A stretch of 64,000 bases of DNA from Ilumatobacteraceae bacterium. GTDB taxonomy: Bacteria > Actinomycetota > Acidimicrobiia > Acidimicrobiales > Ilumatobacteraceae. Each line of letters opens with the position of its first letter. The first letter of the stretch is position 1. Shown here in pieces: positions 1,891 to 58,027 of the stretch. The position numbers were made by a program, and so were the translations under genes. The notes under the pieces are model-generated. The model was not told the DNA's origin. It worked only from the letters and a program-made list of their open reading frames with translations, and did no database searches. The stretch lies in assembly GCA_040081465.1 (NCBI GenBank), contig JBEBGL010000007.1, positions 35,976 through 99,975 of the forward strand, in the 5' to 3' direction.

Positions 1891-2205
1891 ATGGAACTGG
1901 TATTCAAGGCCCTCGCCGACAACACCCGTCGTGCTCTGCTCGATGCATTGGTCGAGCACGACGGGCAGTCGGTATTGGCCCTCTGCGAACAGTTCCCCGA
2001 GATGACGCGCTTCGGTGTGATGAAGCATCTCGCGGTGCTCGAGGCTGCGAACCTCGTCACCACTCAGCGGCAGGGCCGCAACAAGCTGCACTTTCTCAAC
2101 CCTGTCCCGATTCAACAGGTCGCCGACCGCTGGATCAGCAAGTACGCACAACCGTTCACTCGTTCTCTCGTCGATTTGAAAACAACAGTCGAAAAGACTG
2201 CTTAA
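1891..2205 (+). CDS. ArsR/SmtB family transcriptional regulator
   Basis: Winged-HTH pattern FKALADNTRRALLDAL...RFGVMKHLAVLEAANLV. 104 aa. Confidence 0.85.
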   Translation: MELVFKALADNTRRALLDALVEHDGQSVLALCEQFPEMTRFGVMKHLAVLEAANLVTTQRQGRNKLHFLNPVPIQQVADRWISKYAQPFTRSLVDLKTTVEKTA

Positions 2206-2220
2206 GACAAGGAGCCCAAC

Positions 2221-4500: not shown

Positions 4501-5036
4501 TGGTTCACCTCTCGTAGCAGATCGCGGGCGCGTGAGAGTCGACTCTTAACCGTGCCTTGGGGAATGGCGAGCAGCACGGCGGCCTCGGCAGTCGTGAGTT
4601 CATCGATGTACACGGCGCTGACCACAGCGTGCAGTTCGGTCGGTAGTCGCGACAGCAAGTCGTACGTACGCGTGCCCGGCGCGGGTAGCGGCTCGGGTTC
4701 TGGCAGTTGCGCAACCGGAGTTGGGTGCGGGTGGCGCCGCAGATGATCGATCAGCCGACGCAGCGCAATCGACCACAGCCATGCGCCGACCTCGCCAGCT
4801 TCTGGGCGAAAGTTGCGAGCACTGCGCCACGCGCTTATGAACGTGTCTTGCAGCGCCGAGTCGACCAGGTCGTCGTCCGAGCATCGCGCCTGAAGCCGCA
4901 GCAGCAGCCAACGCGAGTGCCGGTGATATAGCGCCTCGAGCGCGTGCCGATCGCCCGCCGCCACGTCGGCGAGCAGCTCGGCGTCGGTGCGCTCGGGTGC
5001 TGCCACACACAACAGCGTGCCAGTTCCGGCGCTCAC
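4497..5036 (-). CDS. ECF-type RNA polymerase sigma-70 factor
   Basis: Region 2 (LVDSALQDTFISAWR) and region 4 HTH (LTTAEAAVLLAIPQGTVKSRLSRAR). Confidence 0.85.
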   Translation of the reverse strand: MSAGTGTLLCVAAPERTDAELLADVAAGDRHALEALYHRHSRWLLLRLQARCSDDDLVDSALQDTFISAWRSARNFRPEAGEVGAWLWSIALRRLIDHLRRHPHPTPVAQLPEPEPLPAPGTRTYDLLSRLPTELHAVVSAVYIDELTTAEAAVLLAIPQGTVKSRLSRARDLLREVNQ

Positions 5037-5992
5037 GCGTTGGCACGGCGACGCTGTTTGCGACTTTGCCGCCAGCCCCGCCAGTCTGAGCGAAGGCCGC
5101 GCATGGGAAATGCGAGTTGCTGCACGATGCCGTTGGGCATCTCAGTCGGGATGCCGTAGTGCTCTGGCCGCTGATCGCGAGGCATGCGGTAAGTGCCGAA
5201 CATGATGTCCCAAATCGGCAGGAAGATCGAGAAGTTGCTGTTGTGTGCTTCTTTGCGGAGCTCGTGATGCCAATGGTGGAACTCGGGTGTCATCACAACT
5301 GGCCACAGTGGGCGCAGTCGAAAGCGCACGTTGAGATGTGCGCCGAGGCCGACGAGAAACTGGATGATGGCCAGTGCACCCGTGATGCGGTTGTCGATGC
5401 CGGCAGCGACAAACAGCACGACGATCGGAATGATGAAGATTCCGTCGAATGGGTGCGCACGGAAGCCCGAGACCCAGTCGAGGTGGCGGGTGCTGTGGTG
5501 CACCTGGTGGAAACGCCAGAAGACGGGAACCTTGTGCGACCAACGGTGTGTCCAATACGCAAGGAAGTCGAACATCAGGAAGCCGCCGATGACCTGCGCG
5601 AGGGGCGGCAGCGAAGTGACAACTGGCCGCAGCAGCAAGCCGGGTATCCAGGCAAGTGACAAGAGGCCAAAAAAGAGTCCGACGACCAATCCGACGAACT
5701 GCAGTAATGGCTGCGTAGCGGCGTAGGCCAGATCGGTGCGCAACGCAAGGCGTCGGATGGGCACAGGGTGACGCCGGAAGAAACGTTCGAGCGGCCAAGA
5801 GACAACGAACAGCCCGAAGATGCCCGTCACCGCTTCGTTACCGACGAAGGCGCTGCCGATCGCGATCGCTGCCGCGATTGCTACGAGGATTGTGCCCCGA
5901 CGCGTGCGAGGGGCGGGTTGCCGTGTGTTGGCAGCGGGCGGTGGGAGTGCAACTGCAGGTGAAACGGGCGATGCAGTGAGGGTGAGGCTCAT
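5033..5992 (-). CDS. Fatty acid hydroxylase / sterol desaturase family membrane protein
   Basis: Three histidine boxes: HRWSH, HQVHH and HHWHH. Confidence 0.8.
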   Translation of the reverse strand: MSLTLTASPVSPAVALPPPAANTRQPAPRTRRGTILVAIAAAIAIGSAFVGNEAVTGIFGLFVVSWPLERFFRRHPVPIRRLALRTDLAYAATQPLLQFVGLVVGLFFGLLSLAWIPGLLLRPVVTSLPPLAQVIGGFLMFDFLAYWTHRWSHKVPVFWRFHQVHHSTRHLDWVSGFRAHPFDGIFIIPIVVLFVAAGIDNRITGALAIIQFLVGLGAHLNVRFRLRPLWPVVMTPEFHHWHHELRKEAHNSNFSIFLPIWDIMFGTYRMPRDQRPEHYGIPTEMPNGIVQQLAFPMRGLRSDWRGWRQSRKQRRRANA

Positions 5993-11309: not shown

Positions 11310-11382
11310 GCCCTTGTAGCTCAGTGGATAGAGCAACGGTTTCCTAAACCGCAGGTCGCATGTTCGATTCATGCCAAGGGCG
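11310..11382 (+). tRNA. tRNA-Arg (anticodon CCU)
   Basis: Manual cloverleaf: acceptor GCCCTTG/CAAGGGC, D-arm GCTC/GAGC, anticodon loop TTCCTAA, T-arm GCATG-TTCGATT-CATGC, discriminator G. No CCA is encoded. Confidence 0.85.
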
Positions 11383-11494
11383 CTGAGTAACTTCTTGCGC
11401 GCAGCGGCGCGAACGTACCGCGAACGTCGCGCACGCGGGGAGCCCTGCTTCTCGTCGCAACTCGTCTGGCCGAGAATGAATACGCTCCCGTATC

Positions 11495-12016
11495 GTGATT
11501 CGTGACTGGCGTGCGGCGCAGGAAGTGGCACCATTCCAACTCGACTCTGTGTCGTTGCGCCGACAAATAGCAACGCATGAGGCCGGCCACGCCGTAATAG
11601 GTGATCAATGCGGGTTCACCTTGGTCGAGGTTCGTATCGGCTTTGAGGGTTGGCACGCGAGCGGTGGCCAGATTGCGGGAGGCTGCCTGTGGGATGCGCC
11701 CGACGGCGATCAGAGTCAGCTCGCGAGGATGGAACCTCACAAATTCGCGCTAATGGCTCTGGCCGGGCTAAATGCGGAACGTTGCCTCTGTAACCGCGTC
11801 CTGATGAATGCATACGAGGACGATCTGAAACTTCTTCGCATCGGGCTTGGATGGGTTGGCGGCGAGGCGGCAGAAATGGACCAGTTCCACGAGCTTCTTC
11901 GCGAATGCGAGGCGCTGGTCGAGGCTCATGCCAACGAGGTAGCCGGAGTTGCCTCAGCCTTGGACACGGCTGGGAACCTTTCGCTGGAAGCCGTAAGGGA
12001 TGCAATGCTTCGCTGA
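11495..12016 (+). CDS. Stand-alone FtsH-like (peptidase M41-type) zinc metalloprotease domain protein
   Basis: HEAGHAV (HEXXH) followed by ALAGLNAERC. This resembles the FtsH protease domain, but no AAA module or TM segment is present. 173 aa, lower GC. Confidence 0.5.
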   Translation: MIRDWRAAQEVAPFQLDSVSLRRQIATHEAGHAVIGDQCGFTLVEVRIGFEGWHASGGQIAGGCLWDAPDGDQSQLARMEPHKFALMALAGLNAERCLCNRVLMNAYEDDLKLLRIGLGWVGGEAAEMDQFHELLRECEALVEAHANEVAGVASALDTAGNLSLEAVRDAMLR

Positions 12017-12021
12017 CTCAA

Positions 12022-12684
12022 CTATGACGTTGAGCCCTTCGGCGGAACCCCTCGCGCACGATGTTTCGTTGCCAACTCTTCGAGGTCACGTTCGAGAGCG
12101 AAGAGCGCAGCGTGGAGCTCGGGCAACGACAACATTCCGCCCACCAAGCCTACGGACGCGTGTCCTTCTGTGACTTCTACCATCGTCGCCCCTGGTGGGG
12201 GAAAGTATCCGAGAATCTCCGAATCGATTGAGCCATCGGGGAGTTGAATGCCGAGCCGTGAGTACGTGTCAATCACGTGCGGAGTATGCCTTGCGGTCAG
12301 GCGTCGATAGAGCACACGTTGATCACGGTGTTCAGCGAGCAGATTTCGTGCTTCCCGCAGCCGAAGTCGAAGAACGGGGTCCGGGGGTAGAGACTGAGTC
12401 TCGCCCAGCTGGCCGAGCAGTCGCTCGACCAATTCGGTGTGTGAGACCGCCTCGTGCGCAACGACGAGCAACAGATGAAGATCTGCGTGTTGAAGGCCAA
12501 AGCCCTTAGGTGTTCGAGCTACGTGTAGTCCAAACTTGCGGTCGTATTGTCGCAACGCTGCCCAACAGAACGATTGTGTATCACCGATGGTTCCGTCCAA
12601 CGCATAGCGCAGATGATCCTCAGTCGCGTCCGTAATTGCATCGGTCAGCAGAGCGTCCTGCTCTTGTAGGTGGCGGCGTCCCAT
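12022..12684 (-). CDS. Hypothetical protein (island gene)
   Basis: An ORF with coding-like composition. The start is uncertain (ATG 12684 or TTG 12729). No family is recognised. Confidence 0.4.
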   Translation of the reverse strand: MGRRHLQEQDALLTDAITDATEDHLRYALDGTIGDTQSFCWAALRQYDRKFGLHVARTPKGFGLQHADLHLLLVVAHEAVSHTELVERLLGQLGETQSLPPDPVLRLRLREARNLLAEHRDQRVLYRRLTARHTPHVIDTYSRLGIQLPDGSIDSEILGYFPPPGATMVEVTEGHASVGLVGGMLSLPELHAALFALERDLEELATKHRARGVPPKGSTS

Positions 12685-12787
12685 CAGGTACGAACATCCT
12701 GGGCTGAATGAGCGCTCGGGGAGGGGCAATTCAACGCCGTGTGTCCCCTCAAGCCGATCGATACGAATTGAGCCTCACAGAGGTTCA

Positions 12788-13978
12788 TTACAGTACTTTC
12801 GCGAGGTCGCGTAGTTTGGTGTGGAGATTGTCTGATTCGTCTAGTCGAGCGAGGCCTCGGCGCATGTGAGAAACGTGGCCCTTTTCGCCCACAAGGTGAT
12901 CGCAGTAGGCGGCTCCTGCCGTGAGATACATCATGTCCGTGAGGTCGTTGTCACGCCAACGAAGGTTCGGGTTGCAAAGTTTCTCGTGCATGACTTCGCG
13001 GTAGAGGCGCAGGGCCGGCATTTGGTCCACGTCCGAATGTGCGTGCTGCACGAACCACTCGCTCAATTGTGATGGGCTGAGACCGCTCTCGTGAGCAGCG
13101 TGAGCCACCTCGATGGACGAGTCCGCAAGGAATTTGGCACCGGTTCGTACGCGTTTCACCTCGGGACCGGTGGGATCGGTTGCGAGAAAGGCCGCAAACT
13201 TCTGAAATTGCGATGCCCATCCAGCTGTTGGCTCTGCAGGAATGTGCTCTGCATCTAGCAGTACGTCGAACGTCGCGCAAATGCACGACAGCACGTGCGT
13301 GGCCCACCTCACGGGTTCCGGTAGGTCGCTGTCGTCATCCTGCGGTGACCAGACTCGTTGGGTCAACGACGCCTCCGGAGCGAGCGTGACGGCAGTGGGC
13401 GGCGGCAGCGTCACGTCCTGGTACCGCTGCTTCATCGCACGCACTAGTTCGAATCGTCGAAGGGCCAGCGGGTCTGCGAATTGCCAGCCTGCAGACAGCT
13501 GGGCCATCGTGACTCCTCTTTGATATCTCTCGTGTGGATCGACCTGCTTGCACGTTTCGCTTAGATGCGCCCATGAAAGCGGTAGCAGTATTTCTCGTCT
13601 CTGAGCTCGATCGATGATGGCGGTGGCGGCGGCTAGTTCATCAGTGTTCTTGACGCGGCTGGGGTCATGGATCGCGTCACTCAGGGTGCTCCAGTGGTTC
13701 TGGTCGAGGTAGACGGTTGGACGACCCTGTGTTGGCGCGAGGTCGGAAGGAGATGGAAGGTCGATCAGGATGAGATCTCCGCGAGTCGTCAGAAACTGCA
13801 TGACCGAAGAGTTGGGAAGATACGTCGTCATGAAAATCGAACTGGTTTCGGTGAAGGCTGGGCGCCCGAGGCGCGCAGTGAAGGACCGCCCATCAATGAG
13901 GGTGACCGACATAACGCCGTCTCGGTTGAATTGCAGTGCGCCAACGCGATCGAAGGGAGACTGATTCATTGTTCTCAT
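12788..13978 (-). CDS. Hypothetical protein (island gene), possibly with a PIN-like acidic motif pair
   Basis: Long ORF, with the start set at MRTMNQ. It contains VYLDQNHW near the N-terminus and DNDLTDMMYLTAGAAYCDHLVGEKG near the C-terminus. Confidence 0.5.
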   Translation of the reverse strand: MRTMNQSPFDRVGALQFNRDGVMSVTLIDGRSFTARLGRPAFTETSSIFMTTYLPNSSVMQFLTTRGDLILIDLPSPSDLAPTQGRPTVYLDQNHWSTLSDAIHDPSRVKNTDELAAATAIIDRAQRREILLPLSWAHLSETCKQVDPHERYQRGVTMAQLSAGWQFADPLALRRFELVRAMKQRYQDVTLPPPTAVTLAPEASLTQRVWSPQDDDSDLPEPVRWATHVLSCICATFDVLLDAEHIPAEPTAGWASQFQKFAAFLATDPTGPEVKRVRTGAKFLADSSIEVAHAAHESGLSPSQLSEWFVQHAHSDVDQMPALRLYREVMHEKLCNPNLRWRDNDLTDMMYLTAGAAYCDHLVGEKGHVSHMRRGLARLDESDNLHTKLRDLAKVL

Positions 13979-14196
13979 CGTTGCGCATGTTTCGTGGGGC
14001 CCGTGTGGATTTGGAGCACGAGAGGTTGACGTCACGTTCCAGGTCCCCGGATTGAGGACAGAGCGTTGGCTGTGGGTCGGAGATTCCGTCCCCACCGGCT
14101 GTCGTGAATACCTGACCCGCAAACTCGCTTGTGGGTCGCCCTAGAAGAAACCGAACGTGTCAACTGTCCACAGGTTTCGTGATTGAGACGGGACGA

Positions 14197-15339
14197 TCAG
14201 CGCTCCTTTCGGTAGCGATGATGGCCACGGCGAGTAGGCGGGCTATTCATGCCATCGGCAGTCGCTTTCACCCAGTCACCACCGTCCATGGTTAGGAGCG
14301 GTCTGCGTGAGTGCGGAAGCTCCAGGTCGTCGAGGCGCCACACGTCATCTGGGTGACAGTAGATTTCTCGATGCGCCTGACTCGCGATCAGTTGATTTAG
14401 TTCGTCTACGGAGAACTCGAGCGGAGCATCTACGACGACTTCTTCAAGCCCTTCGTCATTGTGGAGAACTAGAGCCGTTGAACGGTTCATAGGAATCCAG
14501 ACCTCGTCCGCTGTCGCTAGCCCTAAACCCAACCCATGAGTAAGTGTCCCTGCACTTACGTCCATAACGACGGGGTTGTCACTGATCATCAGCCCTTCTT
14601 CCGGGAACCTCACGACCGTCACTTTTCGACCTAGGAAGTACGGCATGCTGTGCAGACCGACGTCCAACATCGTGCGCACCATTTCATTTTGGTGTGGAAC
14701 TACCTCCCATTGGTCCATGTTCGCAACAGCCTCCAGCAGCGCCTCAACGGCTAACTCATCCGGCTCAATTCCGATTTGGCGGAGATGCGCTCTCGCCGAA
14801 TCCTCGTCGGTGATCAGAGACAGTTGCATCTTAGTGAGACTGTCTGCGACCACCTCGAATTGTCGCCGCATCGTCGGCGTGCGCACTCGCTGCAGCGACG
14901 CCCATGTCGCTAACGCCATGCGATCCTCGCGCGTCGGCGGCCAGGGCTCTCCGGAGATGAAGTGGTCTAGGACTCGCACGAAATCGCCATCAACCTGCGC
15001 AAAGATTCGTTCAATAGCGACTGTCTCGCCGACGTCCTTGGCGATCGTCGTGTAGAGATCCTTCATGACGGCGACGGACTTGATCGGGAGAATCTCGCGA
15101 CTAATCGGTTCGTCTAACACAACTCGGACGATTTCGCCCTGCTTGGCAAAGCGTGCTTGGTACGAACGAGCAACGTAGTGGTGCAAGCGAGGATCACCCG
15201 CTGCGAGAGGCGTTCGTATTGCGCCAGCCAGCCTCTCGACGGTCGCACGACCTTCGGCTGACAGTTCGAGTAGCGGCCGTAAGTCAAACGGATATTGGTC
15301 TCCTGGACCTTCTTCAGCGGAAGCACCCAGGAACTGCAT
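14197..15339 (-). CDS. DUF4238-like protein
   Basis: The HHYVARSYQARF motif near the N-terminus resembles the DUF4238 signature (HHYVPxFYL). The start is set at MQFLGAS. Confidence 0.55.
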   Translation of the reverse strand: MQFLGASAEEGPGDQYPFDLRPLLELSAEGRATVERLAGAIRTPLAAGDPRLHHYVARSYQARFAKQGEIVRVVLDEPISREILPIKSVAVMKDLYTTIAKDVGETVAIERIFAQVDGDFVRVLDHFISGEPWPPTREDRMALATWASLQRVRTPTMRRQFEVVADSLTKMQLSLITDEDSARAHLRQIGIEPDELAVEALLEAVANMDQWEVVPHQNEMVRTMLDVGLHSMPYFLGRKVTVVRFPEEGLMISDNPVVMDVSAGTLTHGLGLGLATADEVWIPMNRSTALVLHNDEGLEEVVVDAPLEFSVDELNQLIASQAHREIYCHPDDVWRLDDLELPHSRRPLLTMDGGDWVKATADGMNSPPTRRGHHRYRKER

Positions 15340-15566
15340 GATGTCACGATAGAAGTGCGAAGGGCCGACTGAACAGAAGCACTCCAACGTTGGGACTGGG
15401 CGCCCATAGACTCGCCGAAACAGCGTGGTCCGCTGCGCAGACCTGCCATGAGATCGACCAACTGGGGACAAGCGACGCCTGATCGCGCGATTGGGCTATG
15501 TCGTCGGGGAATACCTCCCAGAGATCAGCGGTTGATTCGGCTCACCCGCCAATCCTTAGGACTCAA

Positions 15567-23315: not shown

Positions 23316-23777
23316 ATGGGTGAGCTGTTCGGAACACCCGCCCATCCGCTGCTAGTCCACATTCCGATTGTTCTGCTGCCGCTGCTATCGGTGATAGCGA
23401 TTGTGATGGCCGCAAAGCCAGCGTGGCGTAGTCGACTGACATGGCCGCTGTTGGCGGCGACGCTGATCACTGCCGCAGTGACCGTCTGGGCAACGCAGGC
23501 GGGCGAGCAACTTCAAGATGCGTTACAACCGGCGCTCGGTTCGAAGGGCGACCGGCACGCAGAGCTCGGCGATCAAACAGCGCTACTGGCAACCATCTTC
23601 TTCGTAGGCACGCTGGCGATGGCCGTGATGGACCGCTGGTTCAAGCGACTAACGCGTTCAGCAGTCGCGCTCGCGTGGGTCGTGGCAGTGGTCGGTGTTG
23701 TCACTGCGGTGTGGGTGATTCGGACAGGCCACGAAGGCGCCCGCATCACATGGGACGGCGTAAACGTCGGCGGCTGA
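23316..23777 (+). CDS. DUF2231-like membrane protein
   Basis: HPLLVHIPIVLLPL N-terminus and four TM segments. Confidence 0.55.
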   Translation: MGELFGTPAHPLLVHIPIVLLPLLSVIAIVMAAKPAWRSRLTWPLLAATLITAAVTVWATQAGEQLQDALQPALGSKGDRHAELGDQTALLATIFFVGTLAMAVMDRWFKRLTRSAVALAWVVAVVGVVTAVWVIRTGHEGARITWDGVNVGG

Positions 23778-23830
23778 CGAGCACCTGTGGGTCGGCGGTC
23801 CGCCAGATCAGTTCGTGGAATACTGAGCAC

Positions 23831-25048
23831 GTGGCAGATGACGCTGATATCGATATTGACGACGCAACCTTGGATGACTCCGAGCTCCCGTCAGAAGACG
23901 ACGACCAGCTATCGGAAGAGTCCGGTGAGCTGAGTGCGGCGGATGTCGAGCCACTTGTGCTCTACACCCTTGACTGGAGCGTTCAGTCTCTCCTCGAGCG
24001 AATCGGATCCACCTTCGACATCAGCCCAGCATTTCAGCGTCGGGACGCGTGGGACCGAACGCGCAAGAGCCTCTACATCGAGTCGCTTATGGCCGGCCTG
24101 CCAGTGCCACAAATCGTTCTAGCGGAAGATCGCGAATTGCGAGGTCGTTTCATCGTGCTGGATGGCAAGCAGCGACTCGTCACGATGAAGCAATTTGCGT
24201 CACCATCATTGACGTTTCCGTCGTTCCGGCTTCGGGGTCTCCAGTTCCTTCCCGAGCTGGACGGTAAGACGTTTGACGAGATCTTTAGCTCGATGGAAAC
24301 GAGCGAATACGCCGAGGCATTCCTAGCCCAACCAGTTCGGACAATCGTCGTCCGCAACTGGAAACGGGTCGAAGTGCTCTACCACATCTTCGTGCGACTG
24401 AATCAAGGAAGTGTTTCGCTCTCACCCCAGGAACTGCGGCAGGCCTTGTTCCCAGGACAGTTCACGCGTTGGATTGACGAAAGATCAGCGAAGAGCACGC
24501 CCATTCAGGGGGCGCGTCGGCTGAAACGTGAAGACTTTCGCATGCGTGACGCAGAGATGCTTCTGAGATACGTCGCGCTGGAAGATTCATTAGAGACATA
24601 CGGCGGAAACCTGCGATCGTTCTTGGACGACGCGTGCGCGACGGGTAACAAAAAGTGGCCAACTCGCGCGGACCATTACGCAGCGCTGGCAGATCGGTGT
24701 GAGCAGTCGATCGGCTCGGTCTTCGAGGTCTTCGGTGAAAATAGCTTCCTGCGATTCGACGGCGAACGCTACGTGCGTCGATTCAACATTGCAGTGTTTG
24801 ATGCTATGACCGTGGTTTTTTCCGATCCGGCTGTCGCAGCAATTCACCCCTTGCCGGCCGCCGAGCTACAAGCGGCTTACGAGCGCCTATCGATCGAAAA
24901 CGAGACATTCCATCGGTCCCTCATTTCGACGACGAAGACAACCTCCGCAACATTGGGACGCATCCTCTGGCTTGCGGAAGCGGTCGGAGCGGTGCTCGGA
25001 GTCAAGCCCGCGGTTATCGACCGAATTGACCAATCTAAAGTCAACTGA
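23831..25048 (+). CDS. DUF262 (ParB/Srx-fold, GmrSD N-terminal-like) domain protein
   Basis: FQRRDAW...YIESLMAGLPVPQIVL...VLDGKQRLVTM (DGQQR-type motif). The start is set at GTG 23831, where the composition drops. No DUF1524/HNH-like C-terminus is recognised. Confidence 0.75.
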   Translation: MADDADIDIDDATLDDSELPSEDDDQLSEESGELSAADVEPLVLYTLDWSVQSLLERIGSTFDISPAFQRRDAWDRTRKSLYIESLMAGLPVPQIVLAEDRELRGRFIVLDGKQRLVTMKQFASPSLTFPSFRLRGLQFLPELDGKTFDEIFSSMETSEYAEAFLAQPVRTIVVRNWKRVEVLYHIFVRLNQGSVSLSPQELRQALFPGQFTRWIDERSAKSTPIQGARRLKREDFRMRDAEMLLRYVALEDSLETYGGNLRSFLDDACATGNKKWPTRADHYAALADRCEQSIGSVFEVFGENSFLRFDGERYVRRFNIAVFDAMTVVFSDPAVAAIHPLPAAELQAAYERLSIENETFHRSLISTTKTTSATLGRILWLAEAVGAVLGVKPAVIDRIDQSKVN

Positions 25049-36550: not shown

Positions 36551-36865
36551 ATGTCGGTGATGGTGAAGCCCGGAACTCGGCTGTTCAGCACAGTGTGCTC
36601 AACAGAGATGATCGCGGTGAAGGCTTCCGGCGTTGTGGTCGACGTAACAATCGGAGGCGCAACACCGGTGCTTGCAGCGGCCGATCGAACCGGCAGCGGC
36701 GCAGTGGCCGACGGACACGGAGGTGGCGCTGCGATGGGCAAGCGTTACGTCGATGCCGACGACACAATCGAGTTGCTGTGCACGAAGCCCGGCGAAGGCG
36801 TACCTGCGGTGGCCGGAGTGCTGCTGCAGTTGAAGGACGCCAAGCCAATGCCGGCAAGCGACTAG
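36551..36865 (+). CDS. Hypothetical small protein
   Basis: The ORF directly abuts the ligase stop. No family is recognised. Confidence 0.35.
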   Translation: MSVMVKPGTRLFSTVCSTEMIAVKASGVVVDVTIGGATPVLAAADRTGSGAVADGHGGGAAMGKRYVDADDTIELLCTKPGEGVPAVAGVLLQLKDAKPMPASD

Positions 36866-36977
36866 CGCAGATCGGCAGCCCGCGTAGGACAAACCGACCT
36901 CAGGTTGCTGGTGTCGGTCGGCATCGGATAACGCGATGGTGATTCGGCGAGGAGATCGCCAGTTCTCGCGCATCTAT

Positions 36978-37244
36978 TTAGGATCGGACTGCAACGACAA
37001 ACATCCAGGCAACGACCGCCGCATACAAGACGGCTCCAACTGGATACACCCAGCGACCTTTGCGCAACGTCTGATACTCCTCCTCGGGATCACCCGTTCC
37101 ACCAAGAAATCTCACGACCCGACCACTCGCGCGCTTTGCTGCCATCCGTCGCAGCTCACCGTCGGGATCCTTAAAGGCCTTTCGGTTCACAACCGCTAGG
37201 AGGATGCCCCAGCCGAGAAACAGAATTGGAACGTATAAGGGCAC
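36978..37244 (-). CDS. Small two-TM membrane protein
   Basis: GTG 37244 is preceded by a GGGGGAG ribosome-binding site. It has hydrophobic N- and C-terminal segments. Confidence 0.4.
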   Translation of the reverse strand: MPLYVPILFLGWGILLAVVNRKAFKDPDGELRRMAAKRASGRVVRFLGGTGDPEEEYQTLRKGRWVYPVGAVLYAAVVAWMFVVAVRS

Positions 37245-37332
37245 GTTCTAATGCTCCCCCGCCATACCGCGCATATTGCTCGCTGTGTACGCACAACACA
37301 AGTGCCGCATCGACCGTTTGGACGGAGGAAGG

Positions 37333-37375
37333 GGTGCTATTAGGAGTTGATCAGGTTGCCGGTGGCGGTTGGGCG
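37333..37375 (-). repeat. C-rich repeat family, copy D (inverted relative to copies E, A, B, C)
   Basis: The reverse complement is CGCCCAACCGCCACCGGCAACCTGATCAACTCCTAATAGCACC. A 27-nt run is identical to 55086..55112. Confidence 0.7.
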
Positions 37376-37438
37376 TTCTGGGGCCAATTTGTTGCGGAAG
37401 CCGGAACAGATCAGCCCCAGATAACGAATTGGGACGAT

Positions 37439-51763: not shown

Positions 51764-52954
51764 ATGAGTGAGCTGACCGACGATCAGTTCCGCGAAAAGG
51801 TTCGCGACGTCCTCGCGCAATACGCCGACGAGGAAGGTTGGCGACGCGATCGGTACGGCCGCGCGCCTTTGGATAGCGCACCGAACGATGTTCGGCTCGC
51901 GCGCAATCGTCGTTGCTTGTCGCTGCTGCACGCACACGGTCTCGGCGCGATCTCGTGGCCGCGCAAGTACGGCGGTCAAGGCCTCACCAATCGGCACTCA
52001 GTGATCTTCAACCAAGAGATCGCCAGTTACTCGCTACCACTTGGCATGTTCATCATTGGCCACGGCATGTGCGGTCCAACGGTGTTGGCCTACGGCACCG
52101 AGGCGCAGAAAGATCGCCACCTTCCGCCGTTGCTCAGCGGCGATGAAGTTTGGTGCCAGCTGTTTTCCGAGCCCGGCGCAGGGTCAGATCTCGCGAGCGT
52201 GCAATGTCGAGCGGACCGAGACGGTGATGGCTGGATCGTCAACGGACAGAAGGTCTGGACGTCGGGCGCGCACAACGCGGCGTTCGGCCTGCTGCTTGCG
52301 CGCACGGACACTGCTGCCGCACGGCATGGCGGCTTGACGACGTTCATCGTCGCGATGGACAACCCCGGCATCGAGATTCGCGGGTTGGTCGACATGAACC
52401 GGGCCTCCAAGTTCAACGAGGTGTTCTTCTCCGATTGCCGACTCGGTCCCGAAGCAGTGCTTGGCGATGTGGGTGCAGGTTGGCGTAACGCGATCACCAC
52501 GCTGATGAACGAACGAGTGACGATTGGTACCAACTCGCCAGGTGGCTTTGGCTTCCCTTCGTCTGTCTTGATTGAGGAAGCGAAGCTGAACGGCAAGGCC
52601 AACAATCGAGTAATGGTCGACAAGATCGTGTCGATTGTCATCGCCGAGCGCATCGTGAAGTTCCTCGGAATGCGAGTCACTGAAGCGCTGCTCAGTGGTG
52701 CCGAGCCTGGCCCGGAGGGTTCGATCGCCAAGCTTGCAGGTACGCGCTTGTCGAAGACCTCTGCTGCACTCGCGTTGGAACTTGTCGGTCCTGCCGCGCT
52801 CGCATGGGATCACGATGATGCTGCCGGCGCAACGTGGGCAGACATCGCGGTCGCTACACCTGGACTCTCGATCGCCGGCGGCACCGACGAAGTAATGCGC
52901 AATATTCTCGCCGAACGTGTGCTCGGCCTTCCGCGCGAACCGCGCCCTAGCTAG
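51764..52954 (+). CDS. Acyl-CoA dehydrogenase
   Basis: SEPGAGSDLAS, QKVWTSGA and GGTDEVMRNILA motifs. Confidence 0.85.
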   Translation: MSELTDDQFREKVRDVLAQYADEEGWRRDRYGRAPLDSAPNDVRLARNRRCLSLLHAHGLGAISWPRKYGGQGLTNRHSVIFNQEIASYSLPLGMFIIGHGMCGPTVLAYGTEAQKDRHLPPLLSGDEVWCQLFSEPGAGSDLASVQCRADRDGDGWIVNGQKVWTSGAHNAAFGLLLARTDTAAARHGGLTTFIVAMDNPGIEIRGLVDMNRASKFNEVFFSDCRLGPEAVLGDVGAGWRNAITTLMNERVTIGTNSPGGFGFPSSVLIEEAKLNGKANNRVMVDKIVSIVIAERIVKFLGMRVTEALLSGAEPGPEGSIAKLAGTRLSKTSAALALELVGPAALAWDHDDAAGATWADIAVATPGLSIAGGTDEVMRNILAERVLGLPREPRPS

Positions 52955-52967
52955 ACGGAGTTACCAA

Positions 52968-54614
52968 ATGACGACCATGACCGGCGGCGAAGCAGTAGTC
53001 GCAGCACTCGAAGCGCTGGGCGTCGACACAGTCTTTGGCATTGTCAGCATTCACAACGTGCCGACACTTGATGCGATCGGGCGATCGAAGTCGATCGAGT
53101 TCATTGCCTGTCGTCACGAACAGGGCGCGGTACACGCGGCCGACGGGTACGCGCGGGCGAGCGGCAAGCTCGGCGTCGCACTCACAAGCACCGGACCCGG
53201 TGCAGCCAACGCGATGGGTGGTTTGTTCGAGGCCAACTACGCATCGTCGCCGGTGCTGATGATCACTGGTCAGGTCGAGACGACCGAGTTCGGTCGCGGG
53301 CGCGGCACGATCCACCAGGCTGAGCAGCAACTGACGATGATGCGCACAGTTACGAAACGCGCCGAACACATCGATAGCGCCGACGAGATCGTTCCCGTGA
53401 TCATGTCGGTGGGGCTCGACATGCTGAGCGATCGGCCCGGGCCGGGCGCAATCGAGATTCCGATCGACCAGCAGTACGCGAAGACAGAGGTCGCCGATCT
53501 ACGCGCAGAGCCGCCGCGGCGCGCTACTCCATCGAAGGCGTTGCTCGATGAGGCGCGCTCATTGATGGCTTCAGCGCAGCGACCGTTGATCATCGCTGGT
53601 GGTGGAGTCGGGCTCGCGAACGCCGCCGCCGAACTCACCAAGCTCGCCGAGACATTGTCGGCGCCAGTCCTCACGACCGTCGAAGGTCGGGGAGCCATCC
53701 CTGAAACACATCCGCTCGCGCTCGGCCCGAACATCGACATGTCAGCGATGGATCCAGTGCTCGCGCAAGCCGACGTAGTCATTGCGGTCGGAACGCGTTT
53801 TCAGCAGAACACGAACGTGCTCAAGTGGCTGCGCTTCAACGGCAAGCTGATTCACCTCGATGCCGATCCGGCGATGATCGGCCTTGTGCATCCGGCTGAG
53901 GTGTCGCTTGTGGGCGACGCGCGGCTCGGGCTGCAAGCACTCCTCGCAGCGGACATTGCGTCGTCATCAAGTCCCGAGTGGGTTGCAACATGTCAGGCGC
54001 GACGCGATGAAGTGGTCGCGTCGAACCGCAACGACATTGGCCCGGACATCGCTGCAATCATGGACGCGATGTCCGCCGCCTTGCCGCCGGATGCAGTCAT
54101 CGCCAAGGATGCAACGATCTCCGCGTACCTCTGGGGAAACCGACTGCTACCCGTTCACTTGCCGCGCACCGCGATTCGTCCGACGTCAGCTGCGATCGGG
54201 CCTGGTGTTCCACTCGGCCTCGGGGCAGCGGTTGCAACGCGCAAGCCAACCGTTGTCATTCAGGGCGACGGAGGGCTGATGCTCAGCATCGGCGAGTTGG
54301 CGACGGCCGCGCAATACGGGCTGCCGCTGATCGTGTGCGTGTTCAACGATCGTGGTTATGGAATGCTGCGCTTCATCCAAGACATGGCGGTGAGTGGTCG
54401 GCGCACCGGAGTCGAACTAGCCACGCCCGATTTCGAAGCCGTCGGTTCAGCGTTCGGAATCAACTCCGCCAGCATCAGCTCGGTCGCGCAGTTCGTCGAG
54501 ACGTTCACTCAGGCTGTAGCGCAAGGCGGACCATGGATCCTCGACATCGACCTCAACGCGATGTCGCCAATGAAGATTACCCCCCAGCCAAAACCCGAAC
54601 GATCAAATACCTAG
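52968..54614 (+). CDS. Thiamine-pyrophosphate-dependent enzyme (acetolactate synthase large-subunit-like)
   Basis: N-terminal GGEAVVAALEALGVDTVFG and the TPP-binding motif GDGGLMLSIGEL...NDRGYG. Confidence 0.85.
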   Translation: MTTMTGGEAVVAALEALGVDTVFGIVSIHNVPTLDAIGRSKSIEFIACRHEQGAVHAADGYARASGKLGVALTSTGPGAANAMGGLFEANYASSPVLMITGQVETTEFGRGRGTIHQAEQQLTMMRTVTKRAEHIDSADEIVPVIMSVGLDMLSDRPGPGAIEIPIDQQYAKTEVADLRAEPPRRATPSKALLDEARSLMASAQRPLIIAGGGVGLANAAAELTKLAETLSAPVLTTVEGRGAIPETHPLALGPNIDMSAMDPVLAQADVVIAVGTRFQQNTNVLKWLRFNGKLIHLDADPAMIGLVHPAEVSLVGDARLGLQALLAADIASSSSPEWVATCQARRDEVVASNRNDIGPDIAAIMDAMSAALPPDAVIAKDATISAYLWGNRLLPVHLPRTAIRPTSAAIGPGVPLGLGAAVATRKPTVVIQGDGGLMLSIGELATAAQYGLPLIVCVFNDRGYGMLRFIQDMAVSGRRTGVELATPDFEAVGSAFGINSASISSVAQFVETFTQAVAQGGPWILDIDLNAMSPMKITPQPKPERSNT

Positions 54615-54636
54615 CGCTACTCCAGAGGATCAGTTA

Positions 54637-55020
54637 ATGCGCATCTTCCGAATCGCGATCCCGGCTTCAGACATCGATCGGTCTTGCGAGTTTTACGAGA
54701 CCGTGCTCTCGATCGAGGCGGACGACACAGTTCCAAGTCGACTTTATTTCCATTGCGGTGAGGTGATCTTGGCACTCATCGACTGGAACGTCGAAGAGCA
54801 AGGACCTTTACGGCCAACGCCCGATGACCTGTACTTGGCAACGGGAAGCCTCGAGTCCGCATTTCAACGAGCGGTAGCGGCTGGTGCCCGCGAGCTGTCT
54901 TCTATCGAGCAACGCCCGTGGGGCGAGCGTTCTTTTTACTGCCTAGATCCCGACGGAAATCGACTTTGCTTTGTGGACGACTCGACGCTGTTCCTGGGGA
55001 GGGGTGCAGCTTGGTCTTGA
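54637..55020 (+). CDS. VOC/glyoxalase family protein
   Basis: 127 aa with paired beta-alpha-beta-beta-beta modules. The C-terminal FYCLDPDGNRLCF segment is typical. Confidence 0.8.
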   Translation: MRIFRIAIPASDIDRSCEFYETVLSIEADDTVPSRLYFHCGEVILALIDWNVEEQGPLRPTPDDLYLATGSLESAFQRAVAAGARELSSIEQRPWGERSFYCLDPDGNRLCFVDDSTLFLGRGAAWS

Positions 55021-55085
55021 GCAGCCATAGCTGTGGTCTGCGCGCAAATGTTGCCATGTCGTCGTGTTGGGGCCGACGAGCATCA

Positions 55086-55112
55086 GCAACCTGATCAACT
55101 CCTAATAGCACC
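55086..55112 (+). repeat. C-rich repeat family, copy E (3' half only)
   Basis: GCAACCTGATCAACTCCTAATAGCACC is identical to the reverse complement of part of copy D at 37333..37375. Confidence 0.7.
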
Positions 55113-55260
55113 GCTTCCGATGGCGTGACTCTTGCGAACGCGCGCCGGTCGCGACTCCGTGTTGCAGCCCGTGACACTCCCGGGAGCCCATGGGTGCGGG
55201 TGCGCCTCGATTTCGATTCGAAGACGCACCCTTGGGCGGCGGGAGGTGTCACCGATACGG

Positions 55261-55289
55261 CCAACCTCACACACTCTTAGTACGACCCT
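55261..55289 (+). repeat. C-rich repeat family, copy A
   Basis: CCAACCTCACACACTCTTAGTACGACCCT aligns with copies B and C. It lies 77 nt upstream of the deaminase ATG. Confidence 0.65.
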
Positions 55290-55295
55290 GCTCCT

Positions 55296-55339
55296 CAAGA
55301 CTGAGTGGGAACAGCCTGCTACCTTTTCGCTCAGTCTTG
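55296..55339 (+). other. Perfect 10-bp inverted repeat (hairpin, 24-nt loop) in the deaminase 5' leader
   Basis: CAAGACTGAG at 55296..55305 pairs with CTCAGTCTTG at 55330..55339. It ends 26 nt before the ATG at 55366. Confidence 0.6.
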
Positions 55340-55365
55340 GTCGCTCATTTGATGCTGGAACAACA

Positions 55366-56373
55366 ATGGATGAAAGAAAACAACTGATTGCGGGTTTGCC
55401 TAAGGCAGAGCTGCATATTCACATTGAAGGCAGCCTTGAGCCTGAGTTGATGTTTGAGTTGGCGCAGCGCAACGGCATCACTCTGCCTTACGCCGATGCT
55501 GAGGCGCTCCGCACGGCCTATCGCTTTGAGAGCCTGCAGGACTTTCTCGACTTGTTGTACCAGAGCATGTCGGTTCTGATCACGCAGCAGGACTTTCACG
55601 ACATGACCTGGGCCTACCTGCAGCGCTGCAAGGCGGACAATGTTGTGCACACCGAAATCTTCTTCGACCCACAAGCACATACCGAGCGGGGTGTTTCTTT
55701 CGCCACGGCGTTTGAGGGGATCTGGTCCGGACTGCAACAGGGTAAACAGGAGTTGGGCATCACCAGCCGGGTGATCATGTGCTTCTTGCGCCATCTCGAC
55801 GAACACAGCGCGTTTGCCACGCTGGAGGAGGCCTTGCCTTACTTGGACCGCATCGTCGGGGTGGGATTGGATTCATCCGAGTTAGGCCACCCACCCAGCG
55901 ATTTTTACCGTGTCTTTGAACGTGCTGCGGGCCTCGGACTCAGACGCGTAGCCCACGCCGGAGAAGAAGGGCCGCCCGAGTATGTGTATGAAGCCCTGCA
56001 CGGCCTGAAGGTAGACCGCATCGACCACGGCAACCGTGCGCTCGAGGACGAAAACCTGGTGGCGGAACTGGTTGAGCGACAGATGCCGCTGACGGTCTGC
56101 CCGCTATCCAATCTGCGGCTTGCCGTGATCAACGACATGGCGCACCATCCCATACGCCGCATGCTGGAGGCAGGGCTTATTGCCACGGTCAACTCCGATG
56201 ATCCAGCCTATGGCGGTTACATCAATGACAATTTCAATGCCCTGGTGGATGCGGTGAATCTCGAAAGAAGCGAAATCATCCAGCTGGTCAGGAACAGCTT
56301 TTCCGCTTCCTTTCTCGACTCGCATGCGAAACAGCGTCACCTCGATGAAGTGCAGCGCATGGTTTCAGCCTGA
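55366..56373 (+). CDS. Adenosine/adenine deaminase family protein (proteobacterial Ade-like)
   Basis: LPKAELHIHIEGSLEPELMF metal-binding HxH, HAGEEGPPEY and VNSDDPAY motifs. GC is visibly lower and codon choice differs from the flanks. Confidence 0.85.
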   Translation: MDERKQLIAGLPKAELHIHIEGSLEPELMFELAQRNGITLPYADAEALRTAYRFESLQDFLDLLYQSMSVLITQQDFHDMTWAYLQRCKADNVVHTEIFFDPQAHTERGVSFATAFEGIWSGLQQGKQELGITSRVIMCFLRHLDEHSAFATLEEALPYLDRIVGVGLDSSELGHPPSDFYRVFERAAGLGLRRVAHAGEEGPPEYVYEALHGLKVDRIDHGNRALEDENLVAELVERQMPLTVCPLSNLRLAVINDMAHHPIRRMLEAGLIATVNSDDPAYGGYINDNFNALVDAVNLERSEIIQLVRNSFSASFLDSHAKQRHLDEVQRMVSA

Positions 56374-56398
56374 CGGAAGCCTGCTTGCAGCCTGTCAC

Positions 56399-56443
56399 CA
56401 CCCACCGCCACCGCCAACCTCAATACGTTCTTAATGCGACCCT
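56399..56443 (+). repeat. C-rich repeat family, copy B
   Basis: CACCCACCGCCACCGCCAACCTCAATACGTTCTTAATGCGACCCT lies between the deaminase stop and the kinase-like start. Confidence 0.7.
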
Positions 56444-56479
56444 CAAAATAGCCGTCCTGAGATCTGACAATCTGGTCCT

Positions 56480-56986
56480 GTGGAAGCGGTCTTGCTCACA
56501 GGCGTCTTCGGCGTGGGTAAGTCGACGGTTGCAGCTGAGATCGCCGATCTGTTGGAGGGTGTGGGTGTGCCCTATGCAGCTATCGACCTTGATTGGTTGA
56601 CGTGGTGCAACGTTGGCAGTCCGGATCTGAGAAACGGGGATGCGGTTCTACCGCGCAACCTCGCCTCCGTCATGGGCAACTATGCCGATGCCGGGGTTCG
56701 CTACTTCGTGCTTGCGCTATCGGTCCGCGATCAGGATCAGCTTGACATTCTGGCCGACACCGTGGCGATGCCGCTATACGTCGTTGAACTCGTTGTCTCC
56801 CTTGACGAGATCAAGGGCAGGTTGGGAACCGATCCGACAACTGGACGACGCGACGACCTGGCGGAGACGATTGCATGGATTGAGCAAGGGCACGGTACCG
56901 GATTCGCCGACCATGTCGTCGACAACACACGTCCAGTTCGCGTTGTCGCGACAGACATCCTCCAACGACTGGCGTGGCCGTCTTAG
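56480..56986 (+). CDS. P-loop NTPase / small-molecule kinase-like protein (AAA_33/CPT-like)
   Basis: Walker A GVFGVGKST at the extreme N-terminus, followed by AAIDLDW. 168 aa, GTG start. Confidence 0.65.
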   Translation: MEAVLLTGVFGVGKSTVAAEIADLLEGVGVPYAAIDLDWLTWCNVGSPDLRNGDAVLPRNLASVMGNYADAGVRYFVLALSVRDQDQLDILADTVAMPLYVVELVVSLDEIKGRLGTDPTTGRRDDLAETIAWIEQGHGTGFADHVVDNTRPVRVVATDILQRLAWPS

Positions 56987-57020
56987 CCGAGTCGCGCTGC
57001 AGATCGCAGCCGCTTGCGCA

Positions 57021-57065
57021 CACCCACCGCCACCCAACAACCTCGTCCACTCTTAATACGACCCT
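57021..57065 (+). repeat. C-rich repeat family, copy C
   Basis: CACCCACCGCCACCCAACAACCTCGTCCACTCTTAATACGACCCT begins 34 nt after the kinase-like stop and is preceded by a GCGCTGC-AGATC-GCAGCCGC hairpin. Confidence 0.7.
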
Positions 57066-57078
57066 GACGGGCAGGTAC

Positions 57079-57432
57079 TCAACGGGGCGTAATCTTCTTC
57101 GCGACCGAGGAGAACGTGAGGATCGGCTGCGCGTTCTGTTGCAACTCGGCCTGTACAAACACCATCGACTTCGTGTCACGCACGACGCGCCCCGTCGCAT
57201 GGATCGGAGTACCGGCAACCCCCGCGCCCACGAACTCGCAGTTGAAGGTCACGGTCACAGCGAACTGACCGTTCGAGGTGATGTACACCAGTGCGCCCAG
57301 CATGGCGTCGGCGAACGACATCAGCGCGCCGCCATGCACGATGCCGCCGCCGTTCGCATGCTTGCCTTCCGGTACGAACGCTCCACGCGTGCTTCCGTCC
57401 TTCTCGGTTCGGAAATAGAACGGACCGATCAT
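57079..57432 (-). CDS. PaaI/hotdog-fold thioesterase
   Basis: GGGIVHGGALMSFADAMLG motif. 117 aa. Confidence 0.8.
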   Translation of the reverse strand: MIGPFYFRTEKDGSTRGAFVPEGKHANGGGIVHGGALMSFADAMLGALVYITSNGQFAVTVTFNCEFVGAGVAGTPIHATGRVVRDTKSMVFVQAELQQNAQPILTFSSVAKKITPR

Positions 57433-57649
57433 GTCCTCGTAGGGATCACCGACCCAGCGCAGCTAGCCCTCGAATTCGCCGCCAGCAACGGTCTGCCAGC
57501 CATCTGTCCTACCAGTCGGACTCATGTCAGGACAGTACACGTCGATTCCGAATCGGCATCAGAATGCGCTTCGCCGCTGACAAAAACCACCAACCTGAGG
57601 TCGGTGACACCACTTGGTTTGACCTGGTGAACCCGGCGCGGCTCTGGCT

Positions 57650-58027
57650 CTAGTCAGTGTTGGAGTTCTGGGCGAAGACGGTTTGCCACTTTCCGTCGCG
57701 TCTTACCCATACGTGGGCGTAGCGATTTGAGCGGACGATCTTCTTTTCCGTTCCATCGGCTTGCGGCATCCGGCCGTGCAAAGTCGCGCGGCCAGTTGAG
57801 ATCGCCGTGTCGCCGTACACCTCAATCTTGGTGTCCTCGCGTGGGTACTCGTCGACGATCATCGGGTTTGCGGCAAGGCGCTCTAACACCATTGCTCGCG
57901 TCACTCGTTCGCCGCTCGGAGACACTTCCCAGAACTCGGGCGCAAGCAAGTGACCGACGTTTGCGCGGTTGGAGGGATCGGCGTAGATGCTTTCCTCGAG
58001 AGCGCGGACTTCGTCTTCGGCGCTCAT
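57650..58027 (-). CDS. SnoaL-like / DUF4440 (NTF2-fold) protein
   Basis: 125 aa. The C-terminal RYAHVWVRRDGKWQTVFAQ segment is typical of DUF4440. Confidence 0.7.
   Translation of the reverse strand: MSAEDEVRALEESIYADPSNRANVGHLLAPEFWEVSPSGERVTRAMVLERLAANPMIVDEYPREDTKIEVYGDTAISTGRATLHGRMPQADGTEKKIVRSNRYAHVWVRRDGKWQTVFAQNSNTD

Follow-up and report, generated by a model that had tools for sequence, protein, structure and literature searches.

The window, by which we mean the whole stretch of 64,000 nucleotides from an Ilumatobacteraceae bacterium (GCA_040081465.1, contig JBEBGL010000007.1) whose first lines are shown above, contains a locus where direct copies of a short C-rich repeat bracket single genes. 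This raises the question whether the repeats are the sites of a cassette array or of tandem insertions, as the original prediction had it, or an expression element such as a promoter. We compared the locus with related loci and contigs (designated L001–L046), where locus 1 is the interval between the genes for a thiamine pyrophosphate (TPP)-dependent enzyme and a DUF4440 protein (54615-57632) and locus 2 is a second hotspot at 36866-37438. We are highly confident that 54615-57632 is an inserted, repeat-punctuated, hypervariable cassette array, and its repeats are probably the substrates of a dedicated site-specific recombinase.

The sites read from left to right as a head, a CAACCT core and a tail, and the array at locus 1 consists of four internal sites (copies E, A, B and C) and a terminal site, T:

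55065..55114, + strand: internal site 1 (copy E), core at 55087-55092, GATCAA-type tail (nhmmer E = 3e-13)
55244..55290, + strand: internal site 2 (copy A), core at 55262-55267
56395..56444, + strand: internal site 3 (copy B), core at 56415-56420
57017..57066, + strand: internal site 4 (copy C), core at 57038-57043
57575..57612, + strand: terminal site T, with the same head (a head-like CCACC) and a CAACCT core at 57591-57596, followed by the right half GAGGTCGGTG

All four copies claimed at this locus were borne out, including the weak copy E. With at most two mismatches, the 16-mer CTCTTAATACGACCCT matched the window at 55274, 56428 and 57050 only, three matches compared with 0.10 expected from shuffles of the 64 kb. 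Copy E represents a genuine subfamily, because CAACCTGATCAACTCCTAATAGCACC, its exact variant, is found again in the window's second array (37358-37333, minus strand) and in the unrelated contigs L004, L009, L002 and L011. The 28-mer of copy A is identical in L003 and lies within a 32-nt match with one mismatch in L004, the core-plus-tail of copy C is identical in L001, and copy B, owing to an insertion, is 1 nt longer than the CATACG tail type of L007 and L020. The 14-nt head described as common to B and C is indeed an exact match between the two; it is not a feature of the whole family. The array does not end at copy C, as had been thought, since a fifth site is found beyond the next gene at 57575-57612 and synteny with relatives resumes at ~57633. 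All seven sites of the window (five internal and two terminal) fall in 3.6 kb that relatives lack, and no site copies were found in the ~55 other intergenic regions of the window.

The genes and modules of this array and its flanks are as follows, where ORF stands for open reading frame:

52917..54614, + strand: TPP-dependent enzyme gene, conserved left flank (Pfam TPP_enzyme_N/M/C)
54637..55020, + strand: VOC/glyoxalase gene (the "X arm"), first variable segment (Pfam Glyoxalase)
55171..55252, + strand: 82-nt hairpin filling the ORF-less module between E and A (inverted repeat; dG -60 kcal/mol, z = -3.8)
55366..56373, + strand: adenosine deaminase cassette gene (NCBIfam NF006850, 524 bits; Pfam A_deaminase)
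56480..56986, + strand: P-loop kinase-like cassette gene, 168 aa (P-loop motif in the translation; no Pfam match)
57079..57432, - strand: hotdog-fold thioesterase gene, a reversed cassette between site C and T (Pfam 4HBT)
57650..58027, - strand: DUF4440 gene, conserved right flank, followed by MR/MLE and P450 genes (Pfam; synteny with L009, L019-L023 and L043-L045)

Synteny with L011 ends at 54601, at the 3′ end of the TPP gene, which is the left edge of the variable segment, and synteny with L009 is regained at ~57633, giving 54615-57632 as the segment. From these bounds it follows that both the VOC gene and the reversed thioesterase gene belong to it. The VOC gene does precede copy E, as stated in the original prediction, and it lies likewise inside the variable segment; there is no repeat between it and the TPP gene, and it is not at this position in L011, L020 or L023. 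The opposite-strand gene following copy C, which had been taken for a host gene, is instead the thioesterase cassette, which is not at this position in L009, L020, L023, L043 or L045. The TPP gene also flanks the array in L020/L021 and adjoins DUF4440 in L023. Apart from that host assignment, the predicted gene identities (VOC, deaminase, P-loop and the opposite-strand gene after C) were confirmed by Pfam and NCBIfam, that of the P-loop gene by its motif only. The foreign composition ascribed to the modules amounts to only a modest shift in GC content, from 60-62% in the flanks to 56.8-58.9%. Homologs of the P-loop gene are widespread at 60-68% identity, and those in L024/L025 (69% GC, other lineages) have no repeat sites nearby, so this gene family exists outside the system. 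A stretch of 122 nt at 55168-55289, comprising hairpin, head, core and tail, is 88.5% identical to L014 1361-1240 with sharp edges and unrelated flanks.

Locus 1 of the relatives was located through homologs of the DUF4440 flank gene. A comparison of this locus in related strains had been proposed with the original prediction, and it revealed a polymorphic gene content bounded by the repeats, with locus 1 empty in one relative and holding different repeat-bounded gene sets in seven others, which bears out the reading as a cassette array or tandem insertions:

L023 (GCA_038904715.1; 72% aa): empty, TPP and DUF4440 genes convergent and 33 bp apart
L020/L021 (75% aa): 2.6 kb, with an ORF-less hairpin module, two reversed gene pairs (158+62 aa; RHH+PIN) and a cupin gene
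L009 (flanks 80% nt): >6 kb, with SRPBCC, membrane protein and SDR genes, two small ORFs, DUF2283, a reversed 130-aa ORF, a VOC gene and a reversed SnoaL gene
L043/44, L045 and L011: locus 1 with yet other content

Compared with these sizes, locus 1 has 3.0 kb in the window, and not a single cassette is common to the window and its relatives there. In L020, four internal sites separate the modules and a T site ends the array. Co-oriented arrays comprise nine sites plus T in L009 (5.5 kb), six in L002, three in L004, four plus T in L020 and four plus T in the window. All sites of any one array point the same way, while the cassette genes are divided between ~12 co-oriented and 11-12 reversed. 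The modules measure 0.05-1.9 kb; sites are also present on either side of modules of 50-175 nt that contain no ORF. Their cargo includes VOC/glyoxalase (four times), GNAT, SnoaL, SRPBCC, SDR, cupin, APH and DUF2283 genes, as well as PIN/RHH and Phd toxin–antitoxin (TA) modules, a methylase/Mrr protein and unknowns, a content that, by analogy, resembles the integron repertoire.

The system occupies at least two hotspots in this genome, as a second, minimal array of 573 bp lies on the minus strand at 36866-37438, 17 kb from the first:

37326..37438, - strand: shortened hairpin cassette (37359-37438) and internal site, core at 37358-37353 (nhmmer E = 3e-12)
36978..37244, - strand: 88-aa predicted membrane protein, the sole cassette gene (ORF; no Pfam match)
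36890..36925, - strand: T site of this array (core at 36907-36902, followed by GAGGTCGGTT); orthologue in L013 at 7285

The shortened hairpin cassette aligns with hairpin cassettes of L002, L007 and L020. In L026, L027, L028 and L029, the gene for a 104-aa protein (encoded at 36551-36865 in the window) and a crotonase-like gene converge 0-14 bp apart; locus 2 exceeds 2 kb in L013, and L001 likewise holds more than the window. L026 derives from the same genome as L023 (GCA_038904715.1), and AACGACAAGTCA is the only sequence common to the two empty loci of this genome. The empty locus-1 allele (L023 1468-1500) contains three tandem copies of TAGTTAACCGG; the TAGTTAACCGG/AACGACAAGTCA sequence in this allele may represent either a scar or a landing site that has degenerated.

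The internal sites were collected with a profile built from 25 copies (nhmmer), with which diverged further copies were recovered in the same loci. A scan of 185,579 species genomes with the core-plus-tail pattern found it at four places only, all in metagenome-assembled genomes of Actinomycetota/Acidimicrobiia, and a metagenome scan gave 11 further stretches. The plasmid, phage and IMG/VR collections held no copies of the internal site, and the IMG/VR matches to the T-site 16-mer were discarded as chance, there being no family context around them. The 104-aa protein at locus 2 shows 74% identity to a homolog labelled Ilumatobacter sp., and the site family is probably confined to a narrow lineage of Ilumatobacteraceae-like Acidimicrobiia. 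Neither the repeat nor such a system is described in the searchable literature, whether searched by sequence or by concept.

In total, ~35 internal sites are known, each asymmetric and ~50 bp long, and the consensus originally read by eye holds across them. The head of ~20 nt is C/A-rich, with CAxCxx hexamers (CACCAG-CACCAG, CACCGC-CACCGC), and loosely conserved, heads differing across the family at a mean of 9.5 of 18 positions. It is followed by the invariant or nearly invariant core CAACCT, a variable block of 6 nt that comes in few discrete versions (CACACA, GATCAA, CGTCCA, CATCCA, CATACG) and the strongly conserved tail TCYTAAT..ACC. The abrupt end of similarity noted after ACCC(T) was recovered in the ~35-copy comparison, where likeness stops at ACCC(Y) and the columns from +29 look random. 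The 28 nt of core plus tail are ≥96% identical between genomes whose flanking core genes share 73-80% nt. As had been stated, the repeats are non-palindromic and lack attC boxes (no GTTRRRY/RYYYAAC pair was visible), and no inverted repeat, palindrome or inverted arms were found in the internal sites. The GC hairpin described before the repeats is not general, as only 8 of 27 copies have an upstream hairpin with z < -2.9. Sites usually lie 20-60 nt past a stop codon and 20-184 nt ahead of a start codon.

One frame of the site reads ..P-T-x-T-x-N-L-[IVTA]-[HNRS]-S-stop. Its four conserved codons (AAC, CTS, TCY and TAR) show 0, 8 and ~30 changes at codon positions 1, 2 and 3, and the third-position variants are all synonymous (AAC/AAT, CTC/CTG, TCT/TCC and TAA/TAG in all internal sites, e.g., at 55263-55280). 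This pattern is most simply read as a sign that the site is derived from the 3′ end of a protein-coding gene or imitates it. The codon-like variation supports an integrative origin of the site, and the target gene was not found among the ORFs of 28 copies: none of the 28 ends a long ORF, copy B is frameshifted, and the longest in-frame stretch at a site is 136 codons, overlapping the P-loop kinase-like gene in another frame. By eye, the tail also resembled the T7 promoter (TAATACGAC) and the 23S rRNA 3′ end; the former likeness was dropped because the conserved part extends the wrong way, the latter because Rfam gave no rRNA match.

The exchange point was located with the ORF-less hairpin cassette of ~130 nt (TCTGGGGCTG...CAGCCCCAGAAC, then head and core), which is the most widespread cassette, with copies in L002 (4127-4365, in tandem), L007 (10798-10908), L020 (12930-12818, minus strand) and the window (37440-37353, minus strand). 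Its consensus fold is kept, with just one compensatory pair among five sequences. Between L007 and L020, the 139 columns from CAACC(T/C) to the next CAA(T/C)CT show 95.7% identity, and the 60-nt flanks only the background level, with 53% (left) and 43% (right). Rightwards of the second core the two differ, the T half GAGGTCGGTGGG following in L007 and the internal tail CACACACTCTTAAGG in L020. Core-to-core identity indicates that the mobile unit is tail-content-head with junctions at the core, and a module common to two unrelated loci and ending exactly at cores further bears out the cassette reading. Head and tail distances are uncorrelated over 35 sites (r = 0.14, permutation P = 0.11), and the 29 site pairs with tails at most 1 nt apart have a head distance of 9.3 as compared with the average of 9.5 of 18 positions. 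Judged from these distances, the left and right halves of the site assort independently.

The terminal site is distinct from the internal ones. The T site of locus 1, CAACCTGAGGTCGGTG at 57591-57606, lies beyond the thioesterase gene (0 mismatches), and its sole other close match in the window is the T site of the second array. The combination of head, core and GAGGTCGG closes that second array (36907-36892, minus strand) and an independent locus in L007. At locus 1, T is found at the same position in L009, L019, L020-22, L043/44 and L045. Variants of the T arrangement are carried by L013, L016 and L046. At locus 1, T makes an imperfect palindrome of 19 bp, CACCAACCTGAGGTCGGTG; the orthologue in L013/L016 is not palindromic. 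Read on the minus strand (57586-57608), the T site of locus 1 resembles a terminator placed right after the DUF4440 gene, with a hairpin of 8-10 bp and then a run of T; the orthologues in L009 and L020 have no T run. A compatibility rule based on the two bases after the core (GA, CA or CG; T versus internal) was considered and abandoned, as it holds in L020 and fails in the window and L009.

Taken together, we consider it rather likely that the locus reflects a lineage-specific capture of cassettes by site-specific recombination at the CAACCT core, with the enzyme encoded elsewhere. The array would be made of small mobile cassettes inserted between the convergent 3′ ends of the TPP enzyme and DUF4440 genes. 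The comparison of loci suggests that a cassette starts with the tail on the right-hand side of one core and finishes with the head on the left-hand side of the following core, so that its free circular form would have a single complete head-core-tail site. A site-specific recombinase acting in trans would exchange strands at or beside the CAACCT core, and cassettes would insert into T, the putative landing site, or into any internal site, and would be excised between two sites.

Several observations weigh against this account. Neither the window (~40 ORFs) nor the array-bearing loci (~190 kb in all) gave a match to any recombinase, integrase or transposase family, and the internal sites are without the inverted-repeat arms typical of simple tyrosine or serine recombinase sites. 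The sole clean core-to-core cassette common to two loci has no ORF, and the protein-coding pieces common to loci (L006/L011, L011/L013 and L001/L009) are truncated on one side. Hairpin cassettes that are more diverged (L002) have a different type of tail, and such differences between diverged copies leave room for homologous recombination or gene conversion inside the site. Finally, the empty locus-2 alleles (L026-L029) have no T-like sequence, a difficulty for any account of how a T-bearing array is first seeded between convergent genes.

The scans for an enzyme covered the ~40 ORFs of the window and ~40 ORFs of related loci (Pfam, NCBIfam and PHROGs). Together with regular expressions for the catalytic motifs of tyrosine and serine recombinases, which gave no match, they agree with the earlier statement that no recombinase is in the window; nor did the protein-family scans match a Y1/HUH or DDE transposase. 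If a recombinase acts on the sites, it would be encoded elsewhere, as in integrase-less clusters or Xer-dependent elements. Genes for HNH endonucleases (of the 13E12/DUF222 kind, with 33% mutual identity) adjoin array ends in two contigs unrelated to each other, L007 (9026-10240, minus strand) and L016 (1817-2500, plus strand). An HNH endonuclease as the enzyme is a lead only and was not adopted, such a gene being present neither in the window nor at any other locus.

Among the rival explanations, the one that survives best, though we judge it unlikely, is that the sites are a lineage-specific expression punctuation, i.e., a Rho-dependent terminator (rut), a translational stop module or a promoter, which travels with accessory genes, while turnover takes place by homologous recombination across stretches of 30-50 nt and no dedicated recombinase is involved. 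Copies B and C are C-rich and G-poor (6 G as opposed to 23-25 C in 51 nt), as rut sites are, the usual placement of sites between a stop and a start codon and the conserved in-frame stop in the tail would suit such a function, and, taken on the opposite strand, the locus-1 T site is scored as an intrinsic terminator of DUF4440. The lack of a recombinase in the window and the loci scanned and the swapping of tail types among divergent copies of one cassette would also be expected. However, the orientation of sites is uniform within arrays even beside reversed genes, and about half of the sites have no co-oriented gene either before or after them. Nor does punctuation of this kind fit well with the confinement of the window's sites to the two arrays, out of all its intergenic regions, with the flanking of ORF-less modules by sites, or with a separate terminal site type that recurs at independent loci.

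A promoter in particular finds little support. The alternative raised with the original prediction, a promoter of the extracytoplasmic function (ECF) type with the spacing CAACC-N16/17-CGAC, does not hold up, since many copies have GCAC, CCAC, GACA or TCAC in place of the CGAC of the "-10" element. Moreover, the gene ahead of the site is co-oriented at ~12 sites and reversed at 11-12, and four sites face no gene at all (those facing a reversed gene or none include copy C, the sites of L003 and L004 and several in L009 and L020), and the distance to the start codon ranges over 20-184 nt. No sigma-70-like promoter was found at the sites either. A gene for an ECF-type sigma factor is present in the window (4497-5141, minus strand) and another beside the L003 site (1922-2431, minus strand); no link of these genes to the repeats could be demonstrated. 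As for RNA genes, ARAGORN and Rfam (at gathering thresholds) identified only a tRNA-Arg at 11310, and permissive Rfam searches of 54900-57200 gave chance-level matches only, and the repeat was dismissed as a tRNA, tmRNA or other known RNA.

We regard it as improbable that the repeats are leftover 3′ ends of a target gene, duplicated by successive integrase-bearing elements whose integrases were later lost, in the manner of accretion by integrative and conjugative or cis-mobilizable elements (ICE/CIME) or by the staphylococcal cassette chromosome (SCC). The att sites of elements that integrate at gene ends mimic these ends, the direct repeats of SCCmec being an example, and a site that reads as a gene end with synonymous third-position variation would be what attP copies of this kind look like; co-oriented direct repeats starting downstream of a gene point in the same direction. 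Yet the element is not a real gene 3′ end in any of the 28 copies, the modules are tiny and none carries an integrase, and the two independent hotspots follow unrelated genes. The frame of the site does not match that of the TPP gene, whose 3′ end was considered as a degenerate first site on the basis of a loose likeness to head plus core; the frames differ, in L020 the gene end is intact with the array starting downstream, and this candidate is treated as unproven. An SCC-type island was likewise rejected, as the repeat is neither in frame nor contiguous with any long ORF and no motif or family of a serine recombinase was found.

Still less probable is that the repeat marks the end of a small non-autonomous element, similar to miniature inverted-repeat transposable elements (MITEs) or of the IS200/IS605 or IS91 kind, that inserts beside its own end and so builds head-to-tail arrays: the abrupt end of likeness at ACCC(Y), the subterminal hairpin 15-33 nt upstream of the core in some copies and the ORF-less 130-nt modules in four genomes, in tandem in L002, are in keeping with it, but terminal inverted repeats, target-site duplications and matches to a transposase family are missing, no locus has a copy in the opposite orientation, and what lies between the sites are unrelated genes rather than a repeated element body. 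An upstream hairpin as a universal feature, whether attC-like or as the context of an HUH nick site, was rejected on the 8 of 27 copies given above, and a MITE or insertion sequence (IS) element on the missing inverted copies, terminal repeats and transposase.

With site-specific cassette capture as the favoured reading, the array can be set beside known systems. Integrons are the textbook system for capture of single genes as cassettes, and they are reportedly essentially absent from Actinomycetota. Like integrons and clusters of attC sites lacking integron-integrases (CALIN), the arrays have small, mostly single-gene modules, with n modules between n+1 co-oriented sites, a distinct site at one array end, a content that varies at a fixed locus and a cargo of VOC, GNAT, TA and unknown genes. 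They differ in that their sites are ~50 bp long and asymmetric, without R″/L″/L′/R′ boxes or a required hairpin, in that no intI is found by either end and about half of the cassette genes are reversed, and in that the distinct end site lies downstream in the head-to-tail direction of the sites. An integron proper was rejected on these grounds, neither intI nor Phage_integrase being found beside either array and attC being absent.

In SCC/SCCmec, which is moved by Ccr serine recombinases and whose direct repeats hold the end of rlmH/orfX, tandem modules are also split by direct repeats, some modules are without a recombinase of their own so that mobilisation in trans is possible, the repeats can be read as the last codons and stop of a gene, and insertion takes place at a gene 3′ end. 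The modules described here are much smaller (0.05-1.9 kb compared with 3-60 kb), occupy at least two hotspots, have no ccr-like gene and are bounded by a repeat that is not the end of the adjacent gene. Xer-dependent elements, i.e., integrative mobile elements exploiting Xer (IMEX) at dif and the pdif modules of Acinetobacter plasmids, share with them modules of one or a few genes bounded by short sites and a recombinase that is not encoded by the module. However, the 28-bp dif site consists of two inverted arms of 11 bp that enclose a centre of 6 bp, and pdif sites alternate in orientation, whereas the present sites are direct, asymmetric, unlike dif and located at several chromosomal loci. 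A site of the Xer/dif type was rejected, since the internal sites have no inverted arms and only T is palindromic, its L013/L016 orthologue excepted.

Accretion of ICE/CIME and tycheposon islands resembles the arrays in the direct att repeats that flank tandem cargo at a hotspot and in the use of an integrase in trans by non-autonomous modules. Their repeats are 3′ ends of the flanking tRNA or other gene, their modules are of kilobase size and integrases are nearby, whereas no similarity to tRNA and no integrase were found here. Mycobacterial interspersed repetitive units (MIRU), repetitive extragenic palindromes (REP) and bacterial interspersed mosaic elements (BIME) are also short, lineage-specific intergenic repeats, and MIRU contain short reading frames that connect with neighbouring stop and start codons. 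These are spread over core operons, often in tandem, and do not delimit polymorphism in gene content, whereas the sites described here occur only in inserted DNA.

The array is a variant of site-bounded mobile gene cassettes, with a substantial chance that it represents an independent, undescribed capture system. Tentatively, and with slightly less than even confidence, we propose an undescribed gene-capture platform of Acidimicrobiia with an integron-like logic and unrelated parts, in which circles of one or two genes, each with an asymmetric head-CAACCT-tail site, would enter the palindromic landing site CAACCTGAGGTCGGTG and each other by means of a recombinase encoded away from the arrays, producing several hypervariable hotspots per chromosome. 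If the system is indeed independent, genome plasticity based on cassettes would have evolved more than once, there would be a new pair of site and recombinase to be identified, with possible use as a tool, and short-range variation in gene content at fixed hotspots of uncultured actinobacteria, an environmental and abundant lineage, would be explained. The short and specific sites could also serve as probes for harvesting cassettes from metagenomes, as with attC.

A few further features were observed elsewhere in the window. In the region 11310-15495, the tRNA-Arg(CCT) gene (11310-11383) is followed by ~4 kb of accessory-looking genes, which include an M41-like fragment, a 450-aa ORF without a family match and a DUF4238 gene, and then by a PNPOx gene. 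In L046 (1660-3331), the counterparts of these tRNA and PNPOx regions have a methyltransferase gene between them instead and lie right beside the 104-aa gene of locus 2, owing either to a rearrangement or to chimeric assembly. A gene with a GmrSD_N domain (type IV restriction) at 23432-25048 represents a defence gene in an otherwise metabolic stretch. Two tandem duplications, each 75-78% identical, are present at 7594-7994/8058-8461 (~400 bp) and 44544-44908/44961-45325 (~365 bp), the first pair covering two adjacent small ORFs that are peroxidase/redoxin-like, as judged by eye only.

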